Shown here: piece by piece, positions 27,701-35,985 of the stretch | Numbering within the stretch: the first letter of the stretch is position 1 | Layout: each line of letters opens with the position of its first letter | Assembly: GCA_963696275.1 (NCBI GenBank) | Contig: CAVOJQ010000012.1 | Coordinates: 1,001,173-1,065,172, forward strand | Direction of reading: 5' to 3' | Source of the DNA: an uncultured Acidobacteriaceae bacterium | GTDB lineage: Bacteria > Acidobacteriota > Terriglobia > Terriglobales > Acidobacteriaceae | Length of the DNA stretch: 64,000 nucleotides | Notes under the pieces: model-generated | Seen by the model: only the letters and a program-made list of their open reading frames with translations | Databases searched by the model: none | Told to the model about the DNA's origin: nothing | Translations under genes and position numbers: made by a program

Positions 27701-28045
27701 CGGCTTGGGGAAGGGCATGGCCGGGGCCCCCGGCAAGCCCGCTTTTGGCTTGCTGGGGTGGACGGCTTCAGCCGTGCCGTAACTGCCGAAATTGCCTCGC
27801 GCTTGAGCTCCTCGGTCAGGCTACTTGAATCGCTGCATTATCAGCAGGATGGCGGGGAACAACCTCCTGAAGTCATCGCTCCCGTATTACGTAAGTTTGT
27901 CCCCGATTGACCCAACTCTTTCCTGCCCGTCCGCCGCCTGCTATCAATAGTTGTTCCCACATTATTGCTCCCCTGGGAATCGCCCCCCGGCCTTCCGGGC
28001 AGGAGTCTGCCAGAAGTGAAAACCCGCCCTCAATCCTGGAGGGAA

Positions 28046-30799
28046 ATGAGCCTCGTGCCACGGCTTTTTATTGCCGTAGTCGTGCTCTGTGGGATGACCG
28101 TGCTGACCTATTCCGTCACGCACGGCAACAGTGCGAATCCAATCAAGTTTTTCTGCTATGTCGTAATCGCTCTGGCGGCTTCACGGCTGAAGGTAAACCT
28201 TCCCGCCATTACCGGCACCATGTCGGTGAATTTTCTGTTTCTGCTGCTGGCCGTGCTGGAACTGAGCCTGCCCGAGGCGATGGCGATGGGCTGCGCCGCG
28301 GTGGTCGTGCAGTGTCTGGGCCACGAGCGCATCAATCCCATCCAGGTTTCGTTTAACGTTTGCTCGACGGCCTTGGCCATTGCGGCAACCTTTGCCACCT
28401 ACCAGTATTCCCTGTTGCATCGCGGTGCTAGTAATCACACCACGCTCCTCTTTCTGGCGGCATCCGTCTACTTCGTCGCCAATACCCTGCCGGTGGCCGC
28501 TGTCATCTCGCTGACCGAGCGCCGGTCGCTGCGGAAGATCTGGTCAGAATGCTACTTCTGGAGCTTCCCTTACTACCTGGTGGGCGCCGCTGTAGCCGGC
28601 ACCATGAACTGGCTGCATGGATTCACCGACTGGCAGACGTCATTGCTGATGCTTCCCGTGGTGTATCTGGTGTACCGCTCGTATCGCCTGTATCTCGGCA
28701 AACTCGAGGACGAAAAGCGGCACGTCGAAGAGATGGCCGACTTGCATATGCGGACCATTGAGGCGCTCGCGCTCGCCATTGAGGCCAAGGATCAGACGAC
28801 CCACGATCACCTGCAACGCGTTCGCGTCTATGCCATCGAGGTCGCCAAGGATCTGAAGGTTGAGTTCGACGAAATGGAGGCCCTGCAGGCCGCGGCGTTG
28901 CTGCATGACATCGGCAAGCTCGCGATTCCCGAGCACATCATCTCCAAGCCGGGGCGCCTCACGCCCGAAGAGTTCGAGAAGATGAAGATCCATCCGGTGG
29001 TCGGAGCGGAGATTCTGGAGCGCGTTCGATTTCCCTACCCGGTGGTGCCGATCGTGCGCGCTCATCATGAAAAATTTGACGGCACGGGCTATCCGCTGGG
29101 ATTGAAGGGGACGCAAATTCCGATCGGCGCTCGCATTCTGGCGGCCGTCGATTTTCTGGACGCAATGGCTTCCGACCGGCAATACCGGCGCGCCCTGCCC
29201 CTGCATGAAGCCATGGCGCGGCTGGTGGAAGAATCGGGAAAGTCGTTTGATCCGGACGTGGTCAGGGTGCTGCAACGGCGGTATGTCGAGCTCGAGCAAC
29301 TGGTTCATCAACGCACCGACAATCTGGCCAAACAAAAACTGTCGACCGAGGTCGAGGTCAGGGACCCGCTGAAGGACGCGAGGCCGGCGATTCAGCCGGC
29401 AGCGGGCTTCGAAATGCAGGGACGGCGGCAATCGCCGGAGCGCAGCTTCCTCAGTTCGATCGCGGCGGCGCGCCAGGAAGCGCAGACTCTTTTCGAACTC
29501 AGCCAGGATCTCGGAGCGTCCCTCAGCCTGGGCGAGACCCTCTCCGTGTTCGCGGTGAAGTTGCGGCGCGCCATGCCTTACGATGCCATTGCCATCTACG
29601 TCCGTCATGGCGATGAACTGGTGCCGGAATATGTGAACGGAGATAACTTCCGCCTTTTCGCCTCACTGCGCATCCCCGTCGGGCAGGGATTGTCGGGGTG
29701 GGTGGCGCAAAACCTGAAGCCGATCCTGAACGGAAATCCTTCCGTCGAGCCCGGCTACCTGAACGACACTTCGAAGTACAGCACGCTGAACTCGGCGCTC
29801 GCCGTTCCCCTCGAGGGTCTGCAGGGCGTGGTCGGGGTGGTTGCTTTGTATCACGCGGAGAAAGACTTCTTCACCTCCGACCACCTGCGGATTCTCCAGG
29901 CAGTCAGTTCGAAGATGGCGCTCGCCATCGATAACGCCAAGAAGTACGAGCAGGCGGAGAGTTCGGCGGTCACCGATTATCTCACCGGCCTTCCCAATGC
30001 GCGGTCGCTCTTCCTGCAACTCGACCGCGAAATGGCGCGCTGCAAGCGCGATAACGCGACCCTCACCGTGATGGTCGCGGACCTCGATGGCTTCAAACAG
30101 ATCAATGACCGCTTCGGGCACCTGGAAGGGAATCGCGTGCTGCGGTTGTTTGCCCACTCGCTGAAGGAAACGAGCCGCGAGTACGATTATGTCGCCCGCA
30201 TGGGCGGCGACGAATTTGTCGTCATCGCTCCCGGACTTACGGCGGAGGCTTGCACGCGCAAGGCAGAGCAGATGCGGGCGCTCGCGCAACAGGCGGGAAA
30301 GGATGTCTGCAACGAAGACATTCTGTCGCTGAGCGTGGGCAAGGCCATTTATCCGGAAGACGGCATGGATGCGGAAAAGATTTTGTCGGAGGCCGACAAG
30401 CGCATGTATCTGCAAAAGCGCAGCCAGTCCTCGCCCAAAAACCGGCGTCTGTACCCGCGGGTACGAGGCCGCCTCACCACCGAAATTTCCGCCAGCGGCC
30501 AACCCAAGCCCTTGCTCGGTATTGTTACCAACCTCAGCCTCGGCGGTTGCTATGTTGAAACCAGCGGCCTGCTGATGCCCGGCTCACAACTGGAGCTGGC
30601 TCTTTCCCACGAACAGACCCATGTTTCGATTGCCGGCGAAATCGTCCGCCTCGACCTGGGAGTGGGCGCCGCGATGAAGTTCAACGAAGCGACCCATGAG
30701 GTACGCGCCGCCTTGCAGCGCATTCTGGAACAACTCGGCAAGGCGGAGAGTGTGATCGATTTAAAACGCAGCCAGGCTGCGGCTGGCCACACCCTGTAA
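28046..30799 (+). CDS. multi-TM / HD-GYP / GAF / GGDEF / PilZ c-di-GMP signalling protein
   Basis: GGAGGG SD. About 7 N-terminal TM helices. HD-GYP 'HDHLQRV ... LLHDIGKLAIP ... HHEKFDGTGYP'. A GAF segment. GGDEF 'SREYDYVARMGGDEFVV' with RxxD five residues upstream. PilZ 'RRLYPR' (RxxxR) and 'NLSLGG' (D/NxSxxG). Confidence 0.85.
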   Translation: MSLVPRLFIAVVVLCGMTVLTYSVTHGNSANPIKFFCYVVIALAASRLKVNLPAITGTMSVNFLFLLLAVLELSLPEAMAMGCAAVVVQCLGHERINPIQVSFNVCSTALAIAATFATYQYSLLHRGASNHTTLLFLAASVYFVANTLPVAAVISLTERRSLRKIWSECYFWSFPYYLVGAAVAGTMNWLHGFTDWQTSLLMLPVVYLVYRSYRLYLGKLEDEKRHVEEMADLHMRTIEALALAIEAKDQTTHDHLQRVRVYAIEVAKDLKVEFDEMEALQAAALLHDIGKLAIPEHIISKPGRLTPEEFEKMKIHPVVGAEILERVRFPYPVVPIVRAHHEKFDGTGYPLGLKGTQIPIGARILAAVDFLDAMASDRQYRRALPLHEAMARLVEESGKSFDPDVVRVLQRRYVELEQLVHQRTDNLAKQKLSTEVEVRDPLKDARPAIQPAAGFEMQGRRQSPERSFLSSIAAARQEAQTLFELSQDLGASLSLGETLSVFAVKLRRAMPYDAIAIYVRHGDELVPEYVNGDNFRLFASLRIPVGQGLSGWVAQNLKPILNGNPSVEPGYLNDTSKYSTLNSALAVPLEGLQGVVGVVALYHAEKDFFTSDHLRILQAVSSKMALAIDNAKKYEQAESSAVTDYLTGLPNARSLFLQLDREMARCKRDNATLTVMVADLDGFKQINDRFGHLEGNRVLRLFAHSLKETSREYDYVARMGGDEFVVIAPGLTAEACTRKAEQMRALAQQAGKDVCNEDILSLSVGKAIYPEDGMDAEKILSEADKRMYLQKRSQSSPKNRRLYPRVRGRLTTEISASGQPKPLLGIVTNLSLGGCYVETSGLLMPGSQLELALSHEQTHVSIAGEIVRLDLGVGAAMKFNEATHEVRAALQRILEQLGKAESVIDLKRSQAAAGHTL

Positions 30800-30811: not shown

Positions 30812-31927
30812 TCAGGCGGGTACGGCGATCGGGCGAATCTGAATCAAGGGGACATTGCCTGAGGTACTGCGGGGTTTCGAGAGCCCCTGCTGCAGCATAT
30901 TCGCCGTCGGAATTCCCGTCCGGTAGAAGGATTTTTCGCAATCCGCGGAGGACGGGCCGCGCATGCTTCCTTCCATGTACGCCAATCCAGGGCAGCGCGA
31001 GCAACTGCTGACATGCGAGCAGGACGAACAGACGGTCAGATCTTTGGCCTGGATAGAGCGCACTTCCTTGAACTGCGGCGAATAATTCCAGATATCCAGG
31101 AACTTCTGCTGACGAATGTTTCCCGTGGGAAGCGGGAACTGCACGCAGGGAAAAACATCGCCGTAGGGCGATATGTAGCAGAAGGAATGGCCCGCGCTGC
31201 ACGAATAACCTTCGAGATCCTCTTCCGAGACCGGCTTGGGAGGCGCGCAGAACTCCTCCTGATTGCCGACCAGCGCCGGATTATGAAAAATCTCCGTCAG
31301 TTCCTCGCCCGGAATCCGCAGGGAGAGGATCGACGTGTCGCCATCCATCATCGGTGTGATGGTCGGATCGAGCGTGTAATGCGCGTCGAGCTCGGCGGCC
31401 AGTTTTTGCACGCCGGCATGGTCGGAGGAATTCCCGGTCATCAGCACGTTGGCGATGGTGACGCGAACCCCCCGCTCCCGCAGGAAACGGATGGCCTTGA
31501 CCGTGCGCTCGAAGGAGTGCGGCAGCTTGGTGATCGCGTCATGCACTTCGGGACGATGCGAGTAGACGCTGATCTGGATGGTGTCGACGGAGAGGTCGCG
31601 AATTCTTCGCGCCTCTTCTTCGTGGATCATCACCGCGTTGGTCTTGATCTTGACGTTGAACATCAGGCGGCGGGCGTGTTCGACAATCTCAAAAAAATCG
31701 CGACGCAGAAAAACCTCGCCGCCGCTGAGCGTAAGAAAAAAGACGCCGGCATCGGCCAGTTGATCGAGCACATCCTTGATCTCGGCGGTGGTCATTTCGC
31801 CGTGATCGTCATGATCGAGATAGCAATGAATGCAGCGCTCGTTGCAGCGAAACGTGACATCCATGTGGACGGCGAGCGGCACTCCCAGGTTGAATGCCTT
31901 CTGCCCAATGTCGGTCATCAGGCTCAT
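30812..31927 (-). CDS. radical SAM / SPASM-domain peptide-modifying enzyme
   Basis: 'VTFRCNERCIHCY' (CX3CX2C), 'LTLSGGEVFLR', C-terminal Cys clusters 'CSAGHSFCYISPYGDVFPCVQ' and 'CSSCSHVSSCSRCPG'. ATGA overlap with the upstream PqqD-like gene. Confidence 0.85.
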   Translation of the reverse strand: MSLMTDIGQKAFNLGVPLAVHMDVTFRCNERCIHCYLDHDDHGEMTTAEIKDVLDQLADAGVFFLTLSGGEVFLRRDFFEIVEHARRLMFNVKIKTNAVMIHEEEARRIRDLSVDTIQISVYSHRPEVHDAITKLPHSFERTVKAIRFLRERGVRVTIANVLMTGNSSDHAGVQKLAAELDAHYTLDPTITPMMDGDTSILSLRIPGEELTEIFHNPALVGNQEEFCAPPKPVSEEDLEGYSCSAGHSFCYISPYGDVFPCVQFPLPTGNIRQQKFLDIWNYSPQFKEVRSIQAKDLTVCSSCSHVSSCSRCPGLAYMEGSMRGPSSADCEKSFYRTGIPTANMLQQGLSKPRSTSGNVPLIQIRPIAVPA

Positions 31928-32244
31928 CGGGACGCCTGCTGAGAAGTCTCTGCTGGCAGCGGCCGATCGGAAACGCGAAGAATTCCGTGGGCCGAGAGTT
32001 CGGTGACAAATTGCTCGGCATCGGCCTGAGCCTGTTCGGGATCGACCTCAAATTGTTCGCAAATACGGTCGCGAACTATGTCCCGCAGCGGAGTGCAGCC
32101 GTCGGCCGCCTGAAAAATCGCGGTTGCGACTTCGTTCAGGGTGAAGAAGGTCGAATCGGCGGAATTCATTACCATCATCTCGCCCGCCAGCGCCCGCGCC
32201 GCAATGGCCGAACTGCGCGCGATGTAAATGCTATTTTCAGGCAT
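31924..32244 (-). CDS. PqqD-family protein (RiPP recognition element-like)
   Basis: 'FFTLNEVATAIFQAADGCTPLRDIVRDRICEQFEVDPEQAQADAEQFVTELSAHGILRV'. The start at 32244 overlaps the upstream stop (ATGCCTGA). Confidence 0.75.
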   Translation of the reverse strand: MPENSIYIARSSAIAARALAGEMMVMNSADSTFFTLNEVATAIFQAADGCTPLRDIVRDRICEQFEVDPEQAQADAEQFVTELSAHGILRVSDRPLPAETSQQASR

Positions 32245-33130
32245 GCTCCGGCACCCCCTCGACGTTGCTGAAGGAATTGCGGTTCGAGTTCGGTTCGAAA
32301 TGACCGTCGAATTTACGCACTTCGTCCCACACCCTGGCATCAGGATAGAACGTCAGGCGGCGAATGGGAACCGTGTCCACAAAATCGCACGCAACCGCAA
32401 ATAGTTTTTCCACCAGGCCGGGGTCCTCGGCGAAGAACAGAATATTGCGCATGAGGCGGCGGACAGCCTCCGTGGAGGACAATTCGTCAACCTGGTTTGC
32501 CGGACCTTTTTCCAGAAAGAAAAGAGCTGCGACCGGAGCGCTGCAGTTTTCCCCGGGGCGGGCGAGCTCTCCCGCAAAGGGAGTGCCGAACGCGGAATAG
32601 CCGCCGGCTTTCGGCCGGAGGTAGGAAATTTCGTCGGTCAGCAGGGTGATGTCGGGCGGCGCGAGTCTCGTCATGGTGGTTTTTCCGGCGCCCGATACTC
32701 CAGAGAATAAATAAGCGCGCCCGTCGCAAATCGCGCTCGCCGCGTGCAGCAGAAAGCCGCCGCGTTCGGCAAGTATGAGGCTGTGAAGAATCCGCATCAC
32801 GGAATCAAGAGAATAGGGATTGGAATTCTGCCGCACCTGCCCTCGTCCGGTATGCGGATCCCAGCGGGCGTGGAAGTCGCCGCGCTCCAGGATCCACGCC
32901 CCCACATCATTCTTATCATTGTCATTCTTGTTGTGGTGGACGCGAACGTCGTCATCCGAACCCGGGCCCGGCGCCGTGAGATCGAATTCGAGTTCAAATT
33001 CCGGGCGTGAAGAACTGAGGAATCCGTCGTAACGCTGCCGCAGTAGCTCAAGAAAGCTGTCGCTCGTGGTGGAGAGCGCGATCGGAATGCCTCCGATCTC
33101 GACACAAGCGGTTTTTTGCGGCGCCGTCAT
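32237..33130 (-). CDS. HPr-kinase-related P-loop protein (putative peptide kinase)
   Basis: 'LHAASAICDGRAYLFSGVSGAGKTTMTRL' resembles the HprK/P C-terminal P-loop region and the HprK-like kinases of RiPP clusters. The start could instead be 33175. Confidence 0.65.
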   Translation of the reverse strand: MTAPQKTACVEIGGIPIALSTTSDSFLELLRQRYDGFLSSSRPEFELEFDLTAPGPGSDDDVRVHHNKNDNDKNDVGAWILERGDFHARWDPHTGRGQVRQNSNPYSLDSVMRILHSLILAERGGFLLHAASAICDGRAYLFSGVSGAGKTTMTRLAPPDITLLTDEISYLRPKAGGYSAFGTPFAGELARPGENCSAPVAALFFLEKGPANQVDELSSTEAVRRLMRNILFFAEDPGLVEKLFAVACDFVDTVPIRRLTFYPDARVWDEVRKFDGHFEPNSNRNSFSNVEGVPEHA

Positions 33131-33144
33131 GGTGAGAATTCCAC

Positions 33145-33663
33145 CTACCAGGATTCCAGACTTCGAAATTCGCACGCCGATGAGCTACGGCGGTTATGAA
33201 GTTTCAGCGCGAGCCGCCGCGCCAGGCTCCAGTGGCAGAGCAGTGCACCCACCGCTCGAAACCATAGCGAGGCCGTGAAGGCTCGGCGCCGGCGCGCATT
33301 CGGAACCAGGCGGCCGAGCAACGCCTCGGTAGGGTACTCAGGGTCGGCTGAACGGACGCAATCGCCACGCAGTAGAAATCCGCCGGGTGCGCAGGTTCCG
33401 ACCAGTCGATGCAGCACGAGGCGGTCGTCGCGAAGCGCCAACACGATCTCGCCCGGACGGATTTCATCGACCGGGCAGCTTTCGATTTCGACTTCATCGC
33501 CCGGCCAGAGAGCGGGCAGCATACTTTCCCCGTGAATTTGCCCGCGCACGCGCAAGGACTTTCCCGAAGGCGGGTGAACCGCGCCGCGCAAAACGTCCGC
33601 CACCAGGGCGGCACGAACTGCGCTCCAACGCGAATTCTGCGGGGGCGCTGTGTCGAGCGGCAT
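33145..33663 (-). CDS. S24/S26-fold serine peptidase, Sec11/SipW-like (Ser/His) type, with C-terminal TM
   Basis: 'GESMLPALWPGDEVEIES', 'IRPGEIVLAL', 'LVLHRLVG', 'LLRGDCVRSADPEY'. I place the start at ATG 33663 because third-position GC drops sharply upstream in this frame. Confidence 0.65.
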   Translation of the reverse strand: MPLDTAPPQNSRWSAVRAALVADVLRGAVHPPSGKSLRVRGQIHGESMLPALWPGDEVEIESCPVDEIRPGEIVLALRDDRLVLHRLVGTCAPGGFLLRGDCVRSADPEYPTEALLGRLVPNARRRRAFTASLWFRAVGALLCHWSLARRLALKLHNRRSSSACEFRSLESW

Positions 33664-33842
33664 TAGGAAGTTTTTCCCGAGAACTGGCAATTCCCGATCG
33701 TGCTGGCGATCTTGCCGCACGATAGAGCCATCGTCTCGAAGACTCGTTCGTGACGGAAGGACGGTTTCTGGTATGGCTTCTTTCCCTTTACTGAAGTTCC
33801 GGGCTGGAGCTGCTTCTCGCTTGCGGTCCGATGATCCTTCAT
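33663..33842 (-). CDS. candidate RiPP precursor peptide (59 aa, not in ORF track)
   Basis: Hand translation gives MKDHRTASEKQLQPGTSVKGKKPYQKPSFRHERVFETMALSCGKIASTIGNCQFSGKTS. Its stop overlaps the peptidase start (TAATG). Third-position GC is about 67% in this frame versus about 48% in the frame of the listed 235-aa ORF. No clear SD. Confidence 0.4.
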   Translation of the reverse strand: MKDHRTASEKQLQPGTSVKGKKPYQKPSFRHERVFETMALSCGKIASTIGNCQFSGKTS

Positions 33843-33948
33843 AAGTGGTCAAGCCGTGTTAGATCGAGAACCGGCCTATTCCCCCAGTTTCGATAGAGAG
33901 TAACGGCAGTGTACTACAAGGCTTTCGCCCATGCCAGTAATGACCCGG

Positions 33949-33973
33949 CTGCAAACGCGGGCGGATTTTGCAG
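33949..33973 (-). other. hairpin between the ABC-2 permease gene and the candidate precursor ORF
   Basis: Minus strand 'CTGCAAA ATCCGCCCGCG TTTGCAG', a perfect 7-bp stem with no T-tract. Confidence 0.4.
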
Positions 33974-33984
33974 CGCAATAATCT

Positions 33985-34010
33985 GATGCGTTAATAAGAT
34001 GCGTTAATAA
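33985..34010. repeat. perfect 13-bp x2 tandem duplication spanning the ABC-2 permease stop codon
   Basis: Plus strand 'GATGCGTTAATAA GATGCGTTAATAA'. The stop (TTA on plus) is at 34004-34006. Confidence 0.9.
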
Positions 34011-34813
34011 GAAGAGAGGGTTCCATCCTGGCGGGCACGGCGAAGGCTGAGCGATAGGGCGGCGAGCGCCAGCGGCAACAGAACCACCGCAAACCCGGCC
34101 AGAGCCATGAGGGTTGGAAGCATCATCATCACCGATTGACCCTCCAGGAGCGCCCGGCGCATCCCATCAATCGAGTACGTGAGTGGAACGGCGCGCGCCA
34201 GAAGTTGCAGAGGGCGCGGTAAAGTCTGAATCGGAAACATCGTCCCACTGAGAAACCAGAGACCGGAACCGAGCAGCCAGAGCAACGCCGAGCCTTTCTG
34301 GAAGGCAACCTGAAGCGTGGCGGCCGCGATGCCCAGGGCGAGGGCGATGGCGAGAGAAAAGATCAATACAGCGAGGCAAGAGAATACATTGGCATGTACC
34401 GACGCCCGGAAGACGGCCACTCCCGCAAAAAGATAGATCAGGAGATTGACCAGGTTCCCCGCGAAGGCGGAAATAGAGCTGAGGATGATGAGTTCGGCCG
34501 GGGCGGTCGAGGTCGTCATGAGCACCTCCAGCGTCCCCGTCTGTTGCGCCTCCTGCACCGCGCTCAGGAAAGACTGGGCGCTCATGACGAAAAAGGTGTA
34601 CACCCCGGTGCCCACCAGAAGAAAAGGAAAATACTCGATGCCTCCCGGTCGAAAACCGGGACCGATGGCGCGGGAGAGGAAATAGAAAGCCGCCAATTCG
34701 GTGAACACTCCAACCAGGGTTACGACGAAGCCGCTGCGGTGGCGGATTGCCGTCAGCAGGTCGCGTCGCACGATGGCGCGGAGCTTGTCCAGGGTGGAAG
34801 TCACGCCTTCCAT
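34004..34813 (-). CDS. ABC-2 type transporter permease (no adjacent ATPase gene)
   Basis: Six TM helices. 'RRDLLTAIRHRSGFVVTLVGVFTELAAFYFL' is a typical ABC-2 N-terminus. Same strand as the RiPP-like operon. Confidence 0.75.
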   Translation of the reverse strand: MEGVTSTLDKLRAIVRRDLLTAIRHRSGFVVTLVGVFTELAAFYFLSRAIGPGFRPGGIEYFPFLLVGTGVYTFFVMSAQSFLSAVQEAQQTGTLEVLMTTSTAPAELIILSSISAFAGNLVNLLIYLFAGVAVFRASVHANVFSCLAVLIFSLAIALALGIAAATLQVAFQKGSALLWLLGSGLWFLSGTMFPIQTLPRPLQLLARAVPLTYSIDGMRRALLEGQSVMMMLPTLMALAGFAVVLLPLALAALSLSLRRARQDGTLSSY

Positions 34814-34893
34814 TTATAGTCTTCCGATCGTCAGGATGGCTCGGTCTTCGCGCAGCTTCCTTGACCACGACACTCTAACAGCATGTCTCAGAC

Positions 34894-34942
34894 TGAAGAC
34901 TCAAGATTGAAGATTGAAGATTGAAGACCGAAGACCGAAGAC
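34894..34942. repeat. heptamer x7 tandem array upstream of the ABC-2 permease gene
   Basis: 'TGAAGAC TCAAGAT TGAAGAT TGAAGAT TGAAGAC CGAAGAC CGAAGAC'. Confidence 0.85.
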
Positions 34943-35301
34943 ATTTGTGTGAGGCCCGTCGCAAATCAGCGCTGTTGCATTCTTCCGCTTACCCTGTTGT
35001 AAATTTCATCTCCGCCTCTTCGACCGCTAAGAGAATGATTCTAAGCCCTGACCGGCCGTGCGATTCTCTAAACCTGGCCAAAATGAGCCTTGCCCTGTTG
35101 CGAATTCTATCAACCCCAGCTTGACAACTTCCTCAGACCAGCCAGCCTCCTAACCGGGCCCATCGTCTAACTACACTGTTTCAAGGGACATTGCGCGCTG
35201 GTTCCGCGCAAGAAAACTTTGCGCCACTTTGGCCCGGCGATTGCCTTTAGTAAAAGTGTTGAGTGGCTCAGAAAGAAACGGCCCTCACCCCGAGGTGACT
35301 T

Positions 35302-35985
35302 ATGACAGTCCTGCTGGTTCTCTTCACTTTCACCGCCTTCTTACTCATCGATTATTTTCGCAGCCGCCGCGCCGCCGAACGAACCTTGCAGGTTAGCCCG
35401 GCTGCAACCCGGCATGAAGAGGTTGTCCCACGTCTTCAGCCCGCGCTGGTCGCCGGATTCGCGCTACCGGAAAATCTCCGCTATCACCCCGGCCATACCT
35501 GGGCATTGAGCGAGAGCACGAACCTGGTGCGCGTCGGCATGGATGACTTCGCCTCCAAGCTCACCGGCACCATCGAAAACATTAAGCTGCCCCAACGCGG
35601 CCAGTGGATCCGCCAGGGCCAGAAGCTATGCACCGTTTATCACGACGACATTGCCGTCGATATGGTCTCCCCGATCGAAGGCACCGTGTCGGATATCAAC
35701 GAAGCTGTGGCCAGGAATGCCAAGCTGGCGCTGGCTGACCCTTACGGAGAAGGCTGGCTTTTAACGGTCAACGCTCCCGACGCGAAGACGAGCTTTAAGA
35801 ATCTGCTGGGTGGCCCGCTGGCCCGCTGGTGGACAGAAGAGTCGGCCGGCCGCCTGCAACGCCGTATGCCGATGGCCTTCGCCGGAGCGCTGGCGCAGGA
35901 CGGTGGTCAAGCGATCTGCAACCTGGCCAGCCAGATTCCAGACAAGGAATGGCTGCCCCTGGCGAAAGAGTTCTTCCTCTCATAA
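35302..35985 (+). CDS. membrane-anchored glycine-cleavage H-protein-like (GcvH-fold) protein
   Basis: N-terminal TM 'TVLLVLFTFTAFLLIDYF'. 'YHPGHTWALSESTNLVRVGMDDFASKLTG ... DMVSPIEGTVSDINEAV ... DPYGEGWLLTV'. I could not see a lipoyl-Lys motif (ESVK-like). Confidence 0.65.
   Translation: MTVLLVLFTFTAFLLIDYFRSRRAAERTLQVSPAATRHEEVVPRLQPALVAGFALPENLRYHPGHTWALSESTNLVRVGMDDFASKLTGTIENIKLPQRGQWIRQGQKLCTVYHDDIAVDMVSPIEGTVSDINEAVARNAKLALADPYGEGWLLTVNAPDAKTSFKNLLGGPLARWWTEESAGRLQRRMPMAFAGALAQDGGQAICNLASQIPDKEWLPLAKEFFLS

Follow-up and report, generated by a model that had tools for sequence, protein, structure and literature searches.

A candidate peptide-modification cassette of Acidobacteriota with features of linear polyphosphorylated peptide loci and of the SynChlorMet cassette

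Linear polyphosphorylated peptides (LPPs) of the Bacillota were found by following archaeal-type signal peptidases that adjoin recognition elements (RREs) for peptides that are made on the ribosome and modified after translation (RiPPs) (Popov et al., Nat Commun May 2026, PMC13381572). Their genes, lppA-K-B-S-D-N in Paenibacillus alginolyticus, encode a core set made up of LppS, a SipW-like peptidase; LppB, a discrete RRE; LppK, an HprK-like kinase; LppN, of the NTP_transf_5 type; and LppD, an exporter resembling MsbA (PMC13381572). The LPP precursors carry the motif YxxPxVLxHQxIxFETxxS and long, variable cores with a serine at position +3. LppS (S29, H68, D93) cleaves them after F-3 E-2 T-1 in a reaction that requires LppB, and LppK places up to four phosphates on core Ser3, but does not accept Thr (PMC13381572). 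According to the same authors, peptidases resembling signal peptidase I (SpI) were previously unknown in RiPP pathways, and LPPs are restricted to Bacillota, with a patchy distribution driven by horizontal gene transfer (PMC13381572). In this report, we examine a locus with several of these hallmarks in an uncultured Acidobacteriaceae bacterium. It lies in a 64,000-nucleotide stretch of DNA, hereafter the window (contig CAVOJQ010000012.1, positions 1,001,173 to 1,065,172), and comprises genes for a 59-residue peptide, a peptidase, a P-loop kinase, a PqqD-type protein, and a radical S-adenosylmethionine (rSAM) enzyme with a SPASM domain.

We propose, with a probability of roughly 0.7, that this region is the core biosynthetic cassette for a RiPP, that it is an LPP-like system to which an rSAM step has been added, and that it is conserved over the Terriglobia and other Acidobacteriota. 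The cassette bridges the LPP loci and the SynChlorMet (SCM) cassette. The joint presence of a kinase, an rSAM enzyme, and a SipW-like protease is new; the architectural logic had already been published in 2026.

Layout and conservation of the cassette

The cassette consists of five coupled genes on the minus strand, in the order peptide, peptidase, kinase, PqqD, and rSAM/SPASM enzyme, with an ABC-2 type (ATP-binding cassette) permease gene upstream. Its features are these:

33663-33842, minus strand: precursor peptide gene, 59 residues, MKDHRTASEKQLQPGTSVKGKKPYQKPSFRHERVFETMALSCGKIASTIGNCQFSGKTS; homologues lie directly upstream of the peptidase gene in 63 of 77 loci
33732-33842, minus strand: predicted leader, residues 1-37, a variable N-terminus and then KKPYxKPxFRxERVFET; from position-specific conservation
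33666-33731, minus strand: predicted 22-residue core, MALSCGKIASTIGNCQFSGKTS; cleavage site placed by analogy with LPP
33145-33663, minus strand: leader peptidase candidate gene, S24/S26 fold, SipW/Sec11 (endoplasmic reticulum/archaeal) type, with a C-terminal helix; TIGR02228 9.5e-5, PF00717 3e-3
32237-33130, minus strand: ScmC-family P-loop kinase candidate gene, 297 residues, GVSGAGKTT P-loop, T165-D166-E167; TIGR04249 3e-12, below cut-off
31924-32244, minus strand: gene for a discrete PqqD-type RRE, 106 residues; PF05402 3.9e-15
30812-31927, minus strand: rSAM/SPASM maturase gene, 371 residues, no fused RRE; PF04055 4e-27, PF13186 5e-12

A first-pass annotation, made from the letters of the sequence, had already outlined this operon. 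The six open reading frames (ORFs) it listed, permease included, all reappear at its coordinates on the minus strand, and every junction it described can be read in the sequence. The small ORF runs into the peptidase gene through TAATG; a 14-nt gap separates the peptidase gene from the P-loop gene; the P-loop and PqqD genes meet in ATGCCTGA; the rSAM start sits on the PqqD stop in a 4-nt overlap, ATGA; and the permease gene and the 59-residue ORF are 161 nt apart. Its domain calls also hold, with E-values of 4e-27 for Radical_SAM, 5e-12 for SPASM, 4e-15 for PqqD, and 4e-14 for ABC2_membrane.

A scan of one genome per species, with a profile built from eight close sequences, yielded at least 80 related loci, nearly all of them from Terriglobales, Bryobacterales, Sulfotelmatobacter, or Acidoferrum. 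Neighbour-gene counts over 79 or 77 loci leave out the near-identical copies of the window. In this set, the kinase gene has a PqqD gene beside it in 77 of 79 loci, an rSAM gene in 76 of 79, and a peptidase gene in 73 of 77, and a homologue of the 59-residue ORF stands in the expected position in 63 of 77. The annotation had staked its reading on enzyme genes that keep company in related genomes and on a conserved small ORF ahead of them, and both are found; for the small ORF, 384 clusters of database peptides add to the locus counts. Judged from these sequences, the arrangement is not a product of chance, because some 75 independent loci show the genes in an identical order and the small ORF bears a coding signature (see below).

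The enzymes themselves are widespread and well conserved. At E<=0.001, a search with the kinase retrieved more than 7,000 protein clusters, formed at 90% identity. Among these, the 120 best are 73-99% identical, and the few of the 120 that carry taxon names are metagenome-assembled genomes (MAGs) of Terriglobales or Acidobacteriia. At 50% identity, 204 kinase clusters have E-values below 1e-30. Across distinct MAG lineages, the kinase is 75-80% and the rSAM enzyme 85-90% identical, and the 90%-identity cluster of the latter has 534 members.

The precursor and its putative modifying enzymes

The family consensus of the small peptide is KKPYxKPxFRxERVFET-xALxCGK-x3-T-x3-C-x6-S-stop. In the predicted core, A2, L3, C5, G6, K7, C15, and the C-terminal Ser are invariant, and T11 nearly so. 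The geometry of the core is as constant as its residues: among 120 database homologues, the two Cys are spaced by 10 in 119, seven residues follow the second Cys in 116, and the terminal residue is Ser in all 120. The peptides from the loci agree, with a terminal Ser in 63 of 66 distinct sequences; frameshifts or read-through seem to account for the other three. The entropy of the third codon position (1.47) exceeds that of the other two (0.84 and 0.78), about 1.8-fold more variation falling at the third position, a pattern typical of coding sequence.

Searches of Pfam and NCBIfam returned no family for the precursor peptides, and the 384 database clusters, 54-62 residues in length, are without exception unnamed. 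The exact peptide of the window was not found in a collection of 15 billion proteins, and therefore has never been called as a gene. Indeed, the small ORF is often passed over in public annotation, where the members of the cassette are labelled just “hypothetical protein,” “radical SAM protein,” and “S24/S26 peptidase.” Gene callers can favour a long peptidase reading that runs over it: the peptidase of locus L001 was called at 207 residues, and in L002 neither the peptidase nor the precursor gene was called. This preference probably explains the absence of the window's precursor from public protein sets. In the window, the corresponding TTG-initiated reading of 235 residues (33145-33852, minus strand), which overlaps the small ORF, was rejected: its N-terminal extension is not conserved, the start of homologous peptidases lies past the stop codon of the precursor gene, and it is the other frame that holds the conserved peptide.

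The precursor gene varies in number and place among the relatives. Two identical copies are present in L024, and in L058 and L069 the gene lies 3-4 kb away. In L001 (9175-9405) the enzymes are intact and the precursor is lost; a deletion of about 140 nt has left only a remnant out of frame, …FFETSLCLAARK…. A close relative, L014 (3543-3702), also has intact enzymes and has lost the precursor gene. A search for diverged precursors in L015-L018, L025, L060, L063, L070, and L075 revealed none that was recognisable.

The first-pass annotation had placed a Sec11/SipW-type enzyme in the protease slot of the operon, and several lines of evidence bear this out. The peptidase matches, weakly, the models of archaeal-type signal peptidase I (TIGR02228, 9.5e-5) and PF00717 (3e-3). 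Ser47 (in GESMLP), His85 (LHR), Asp101 (RGD), and Asp107 are invariant in alignments of 75 and of 25 homologues, and their spacing is that of the Sec11/SipW Ser-His-Asp type. A BLASTP comparison with LppS gave 26% identity (E 7e-7), with the GxSMxP, HR, and GD..D motifs and the C-terminal helix aligned. In Foldseek, a structural model of the protein with a predicted local distance difference test (pLDDT) score of 74 matched LexA, SpsB, and human SEC11A/C, as expected of an S24/S26 fold.

The kinase scores best against TIGR04249, named “SynChlorMet cassette protein ScmC” (3e-12, below the cut-off); HprK-related kinases A and B score only about 1e-3, and its homologues are annotated with a newer Pfam family, PF27840, “ScmC.” The AlphaFold model (pLDDT 91) gave ATP-dependent phosphoenolpyruvate carboxykinases (PEPCKs) as the top Foldseek matches, over the whole length at E 1e-9, and a profile search of the Protein Data Bank matched the PEPCK P-loop. 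Thus, “HprK-like,” as the kinase had been called, is apt at the level of the PEPCK/HprK superfamily, but the protein is not a close homologue of HprK; its family is ScmC. The GxSGAGKTT P-loop and the T-D-E motif (T165-D166-E167) are invariant among the homologues, and the latter, compared with PsmK by motif and not by alignment, probably corresponds to the DD metal site that was mutated in that kinase.

For the PqqD protein, the best NCBIfam matches are the lasso PqqD chaperones (NF033530, NF033536), ScmD, and the HPr-rel-A PqqD, all below their cut-offs. The rSAM enzyme has a CX3CX2C motif (C28/C32/C35) which, together with eight C-terminal Cys, is conserved in 76 homologues; this conservation indicates, as far as sequence can, that the SPASM domain is complete and has both auxiliary clusters. 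Its NCBIfam scores form a flat series in which no curated cut-off is reached: NirJ2 143 bits (cut-off 500), AhbD 140, MftC 134, WgkB 120, StsB 113, PqqE 107, and ScmE 104. The nearest solved structures are SkfB (4e-15), a thioether synthase of the sactisynthase type, followed by CteB and PqqE. Some records of the Joint Genome Institute (JGI) call this enzyme “AdoMet-dependent heme synthase.” The label looks like an over-annotation, because the scores are below 30% of the AhbD/NirJ cut-offs and the PqqD/precursor context is constant.

Likeness to described systems

These components suggest the following sequence of events. The PqqD protein would bind the KKPYxKPxF segment of the leader and present the peptide to its partners. 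The rSAM/SPASM enzyme would then modify the 22-residue core, by analogy most likely with a thioether at Cys5 and/or Cys15, although a crosslink at these residues is a guess. With ATP, the ScmC-type kinase would phosphorylate the C-terminal Ser, maybe repeatedly, in the manner of PadeK and PsmK, and this prediction gains support because the terminal Ser is invariant (120/120). The SipW-like peptidase would, with the RRE, cut the YxKPxF...VFET leader after FET, as LppS does. In relatives of this bacterium, an NTP_transf_5 enzyme would decorate the phosphate and an ABC-2 transporter would export the product; in this genome, which lacks the ATPase and the nucleotidyltransferase, these last two steps would be absent or supplied from elsewhere.

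The resemblance to LPP loci is the closest. Both have a SipW/archaeal-type Ser-His-Asp leader peptidase, a discrete PqqD RRE, and a YxxP...FET leader, and both lack a lasso cyclase. Their kinases are alike in being typed by TIGR04249, a likeness by shared model and not by direct alignment with LppK; in the LPP domain table, most kinases are assigned to TIGR04249 (67) or TIGR04352 (65), and TIGR04355 also occurs (PMC13381572). Many relatives of the window further share with LPP loci an NTP_transf_5 enzyme and an ABC exporter. The same study contains what may be nearer kin: in cluster 3 of its sequence similarity network (SSN), which was left unstudied, SipW-like peptidases are found together with RREs classed as “other”; they come from Acidobacteriota, Chloroflexota, Myxococcota, and candidate phyla (PMC13381572). 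Members of this cluster are nearer than LppS and LppB to the peptidase and PqqD protein of the window. Specifically, the peptidase is 33% identical (9e-10) to an Acidobacterial member, and the PqqD protein is 31% identical (E 5e-11) to the Acidobacterial RRE that adjoins an SpI-like peptidase in cluster 3.

The differences from LPP loci are also clear. LPP loci lack an rSAM/SPASM enzyme, which in the cassette studied here is a conserved and translationally coupled part; the portions of PMC13381572 and its supplements that were available contain no mention of radical SAM. The primary LPP modification is polyphosphorylation, with no other class-defining enzyme, whereas the rSAM gene is present in 76 of 79 loci of our family. 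LPP cores vary, are long, and carry Ser at +3; the core in the window has 22 residues, a fixed length, two invariant Cys, and an invariant Ser at its C-terminus. The LPP exporter is MsbA-like, whereas the window has an ABC-2 type permease alone, with no ATPase, and the window also lacks the NTP_transf_5 gene of LPP loci. Finally, LPPs are patchily distributed in the Bacillota, whereas this family occurs in Acidobacteriota with a highly conserved peptide and a widespread cassette.

The SCM cassette, defined in silico by TIGR04248-TIGR04251 (ScmC, ScmD, ScmE, ScmF), shares with the window the trio of ScmC P-loop protein, PqqD protein, and rSAM/SPASM enzyme. The scores fall short of the family cut-offs, however (46.4 versus 125 bits for ScmC, 25.3 versus 100 for ScmD, 103.6 versus 400 for ScmE, and 62 versus 400 for ScmF), and SCM has two paralogous rSAM/SPASM enzymes where the window and related loci have one. 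Further, a precursor and a leader peptidase are identified in the window cassette, whereas for SCM, to our knowledge, no precursor has been reported. Our literature search found no paper that mentions the SCM cassette.

With lasso peptide clusters of the paeninodin/pseudomycoidin type (PadeK, PsmK, PsmN), the window has in common a YxxP leader, a discrete PqqD RRE, and a kinase of the HprK superfamily. In those clusters, PadeK and PsmK phosphorylate the C-terminal Ser of the precursor, and the NTP_transf_5 enzyme PsmN adds a hexose to the phosphate (PMC6993621, PMC8498205). The leader feature YxxPxL of lasso precursors has its counterpart here in an invariant Y, P, and F/V at the corresponding spacing. 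Lasso clusters, though, have an asparagine-synthetase-like macrolactam cyclase and a transglutaminase-like leader protease (B2), and the cassette has neither, but a signal-peptidase-like protease and an rSAM enzyme; as the first-pass annotation held, no Asn_synthase or Transglut_core3 domain is listed by Pfam for L001 and L002 (+/-10 kb) or for the six window proteins. A lasso core also has to begin with Gly/Ala/Ser/Cys and to carry Asp/Glu at one of positions 7-9, and the core in the window has no conserved acidic residue anywhere.

The maturases of sactipeptides and ranthipeptides (SkfB, CteB, AlbA), whose formation of thioethers depends on an RRE, resemble the cassette in their rSAM fold with SPASM or twitch domain, Cys-containing core, and PqqD-type RRE. 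In SkfB-type systems the RRE is fused, whereas here it is discrete, the kinase and SipW-like protease are integral, and no curated family cut-off is reached. The pathways to mycofactocin (MftA-B-C-E) and PQQ (PqqA-D-E) likewise start from a short conserved peptide and employ a discrete chaperone of the PqqD family, an rSAM/SPASM enzyme, and a peptidase of their own, and the degree of conservation of the peptide studied here is more typical of cofactor or signal precursors than of antibiotics, but again the scores are short of the cut-offs (MftC 133.8 versus 265, PqqE 107.3 versus 381, PqqD 22.7 versus 46). Their precursors end in GVY or contain Glu-x3-Tyr, and that of the window, which ends in RKxS, does neither. 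The MftD/E/F and PqqB/C genes are absent from the window cassette, and a kinase is present instead. The first-pass annotation was correct that the architecture does not match the lasso, PQQ, and mycofactocin clusters, and for sacti/ranthipeptide maturases no curated cut-off is reached; a design of this kind is no longer without precedent, since the LPP loci (May 2026) also unite a signal-peptidase-type protease, an RRE, and an ScmC/HprK-like kinase. A literature search found no paper describing this cassette, and a survey of biosynthetic gene clusters in peatland mentions generic antiSMASH classes only.

Several observations weigh against the proposal of an LPP-like peptide with an rSAM step. 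Every chemical step in it, both the modification of the core by the rSAM enzyme and the phosphorylation of the terminal Ser, is drawn by analogy. The interval from YxxP to FET is two residues shorter in the window than in LPP precursors, and the cut may differ accordingly; the -3/-1 rule of signal peptidases would place it at TxA|L, and the spacing in lasso precursors at AL|x. Position 3 of the core, which in LPP is the Ser acted on by LppK, is an invariant Leu, and the sole invariant Ser is the C-terminal one. BLASTP found no alignment between the PqqD protein of the window and LppB. The rSAM enzyme has its best NCBIfam scores with NirJ2 and AhbD of heme pathways, albeit far below the cut-offs. 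The two core Cys may form a disulfide, with the rSAM enzyme acting elsewhere, because LPP precursors carry two Cys without an rSAM enzyme; this is true of several Bacillota precursors (e.g., ...FETKPSKPHPCDNGGHTGSPNCK) (PMC13381572). The adjacent precursor gene has been lost from some relatives (L001, L014, L015-L018). Last, the transporter ATPase and the NTP_transf_5 gene are absent from the window, and upstream of the permease gene there is no remnant of the ATPase.

Accessory genes, alternative explanations, and implications

Three further features lie around the five genes:

34004-34813, minus strand: ABC-2 type permease gene, without a partner ATPase in this genome; PF01061 4e-14
33843-33940, minus strand: conserved non-coding block 5' of the precursor gene; from an alignment of 16 loci
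30767-30785, minus strand: terminator-like hairpin and T-run, about 30 nt past the rSAM stop

The complement of accessory genes differs among the loci. An NTP_transf_5 gene (PF14907) is present in 44 of 84. ABC transporter genes occur in about 17-22, and the pairing of an ABC ATPase with an ABC-2 permease is confined to the subclade around the window. In the close relatives L001, L004-L012, L019, L021, and L056, the stretch immediately upstream of the permease gene holds the ATPase gene and an NTP_transf_5 gene of divergent type. The full 64 kb of the window hold no ABC ATPase, NTP_transf_5, or beta-propeller homologue. The window and the near-identical L002 and L003 have the permease only, adjoining an unrelated GcvH-like gene; the permease is orphaned in this lineage. 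Its cassette genes are intact, and export and phosphate decoration are either missing here or supplied in trans. The ATPase and NTP_transf_5 genes of close relatives are replaced in the window by about 490 bp (34814-35301), which contain, at about 34870-34930, a short tandem repeat on the minus strand, GTCTTCG GTCTTCG GTCTTCA ATCTTCA ATCTTCA ATCTTGA GTCTTCA.

In 50 of 84 loci, a secreted beta-propeller-like protein of 600-800 residues flanks the cassette (e.g., L061:5083-7284, L048:5163-7283, L026:10411-12252). It belongs to no Pfam or NCBIfam family and is marked by the motifs PxDWSHxHxxFSxP, DPRY, and a C-terminal IYFSTL...GCAVQASQAAL; a profile search matched it to designed “Cake” propellers, TolB, and BamB. 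None of the loci examined that have ABC transporter genes directly upstream also has this gene.

The conserved block upstream of the precursor gene includes a promoter-like part: CTGGCA (33937-33932; (C/T)TGGCA in the alignment), an 18-nt spacer, and TACACT (33913-33908). A conserved 5' leader, CTCTTATC..AAACTGGGGGATAAGCCAG..CTGGCTTGACCAACT-ATG, follows, and between the two lies TGTAGTACACTG, invariant in the window and in the equivalent spacers of L004-L013. The pattern of conservation is consistent with a promoter and 5' leader, although a strict sigma-70 scan returned no promoter in the region, the block in the window being one match short. A structured 5' untranslated region or riboswitch was considered and rejected: the consensus fold of ten leaders amounts to just -2.6 kcal/mol with almost no covariation, an apparently covarying hairpin falls inside the putative promoter spacer, and an Rfam search of 33500-35400 at a permissive E-value gave matches at chance level only. 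At the other end, the hairpin at 30767-30785 is likely the end of the operon. It sits between the rSAM gene and a convergent gene (27965-30799, plus strand) for a 944-residue HD-GYP/GAF/GGDEF/PilZ protein with an N-terminal membrane domain. This gene keeps its position in 16 related loci, and in L001 it is split into two separate genes.

An important question is whether this genome's cassette is a decaying or incomplete copy, from which the ABC ATPase and NTP_transf_5 genes were lost by rearrangement and, perhaps with them, the mature exported product. We consider this doubtful, though worth keeping in view. In its closest kin (L001, L004-L008) the order of genes is NTP_transf_5, ATPase, permease, and what the window, L002, and L003 retain is the permease beside the GcvH-like gene, with no trace of the ATPase. 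Yet none of the six genes that remain is truncated, three independent assemblies agree in them at 99-100% identity, the start/stop coupling and the precursor are intact, and 13 of 77 related loci have no gene in the NTP_transf_5 cluster, a cluster that also took in beta-propeller proteins. A different question is what the machinery makes. Its product could be a conserved compound with a physiological role (as a redox cofactor, as a signal, or as a small crosslinked subunit that partners a secreted protein) and not a secreted peptide of the antibiotic type. Mycofactocin is such a case, as is the gamma subunit of quinohemoprotein amine dehydrogenase, whose Cys thioethers are the work of QhpD, an rSAM/SPASM enzyme. 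The peptide, core included, is near-invariant in length and key residues across a class, in contrast to antibiotic RiPPs, the cores of which are hypervariable, and to the patchy distribution of LPPs; conservation is high in the enzymes, too; and most loci have no transporter, while 50 of 84 have the adjacent beta-propeller-like protein. Nevertheless, we think this unlikely, given that the cassette has no constant neighbour among oxidoreductases or enzymes known to depend on a cofactor, that the link to the beta-propeller is one of adjacency, that the window has no such gene, and that its subclade pairs the cassette with an ABC-2 exporter. Equally speculative, in our opinion, is a broader form of the idea, in which the peptide would be a class-wide, apparently vertically maintained molecule of the Terriglobia, a crosslinked, phospho-decorated cofactor, signal, or beta-propeller partner, and in which the orphan SCM cassette and the LPPs of Bacillota would be linked with it in one superfamily of SipW-processed, kinase-decorated peptides.

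Two further explanations concern single enzymes. Phosphorylation could be transient, with Ser/Thr eliminated to dehydro-residues that are then attacked by the two Cys, according to the logic of class III/IV lanthipeptides, the rSAM enzyme being an unrelated tailoring enzyme. The core does offer two invariant Cys, the near-invariant Thr11, and the terminal Ser, and the kinase has no other obvious role. However, the cassette has no lyase or cyclase domain, LppK, PadeK, and PsmK leave a stable mono- to poly-phosphate on Ser, and LppK did not accept Thr, all of which makes this course very improbable. There is, in our judgment, scarcely any chance that the rSAM enzyme acts on a small molecule in a heme or cofactor pathway and that the small ORF is not its substrate. 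The top NCBIfam E-values, with NirJ2 and AhbD, and the JGI label would point in that direction, but those scores are hardly above the ones obtained with the peptide maturases MftC, WgkB, StsB, and PqqE. Further, the rSAM gene overlaps the stop of the PqqD gene by 4 nt and stays beside the PqqD gene and precursor in 76 of 79 loci, and no genes for heme d1 or alternative heme synthesis are nearby. We therefore favour an LPP-like peptide cassette with an added rSAM step.

Acidobacteriota are among the most abundant bacteria of soil, and almost nothing is known of their peptide natural products. With the cassette, both a so far uncharacterised family of rSAM/SPASM enzymes and a ScmC-type kinase gain a substrate that can be tested, and it extends the use of a signal-peptidase-like leader protease beyond the Bacillota. 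It also provides a hint of where the missing precursor of the SCM cassette might be sought. If the product is indeed a conserved cofactor or signal, it would have a bearing on the physiology of acidobacteria in soils and peatlands.

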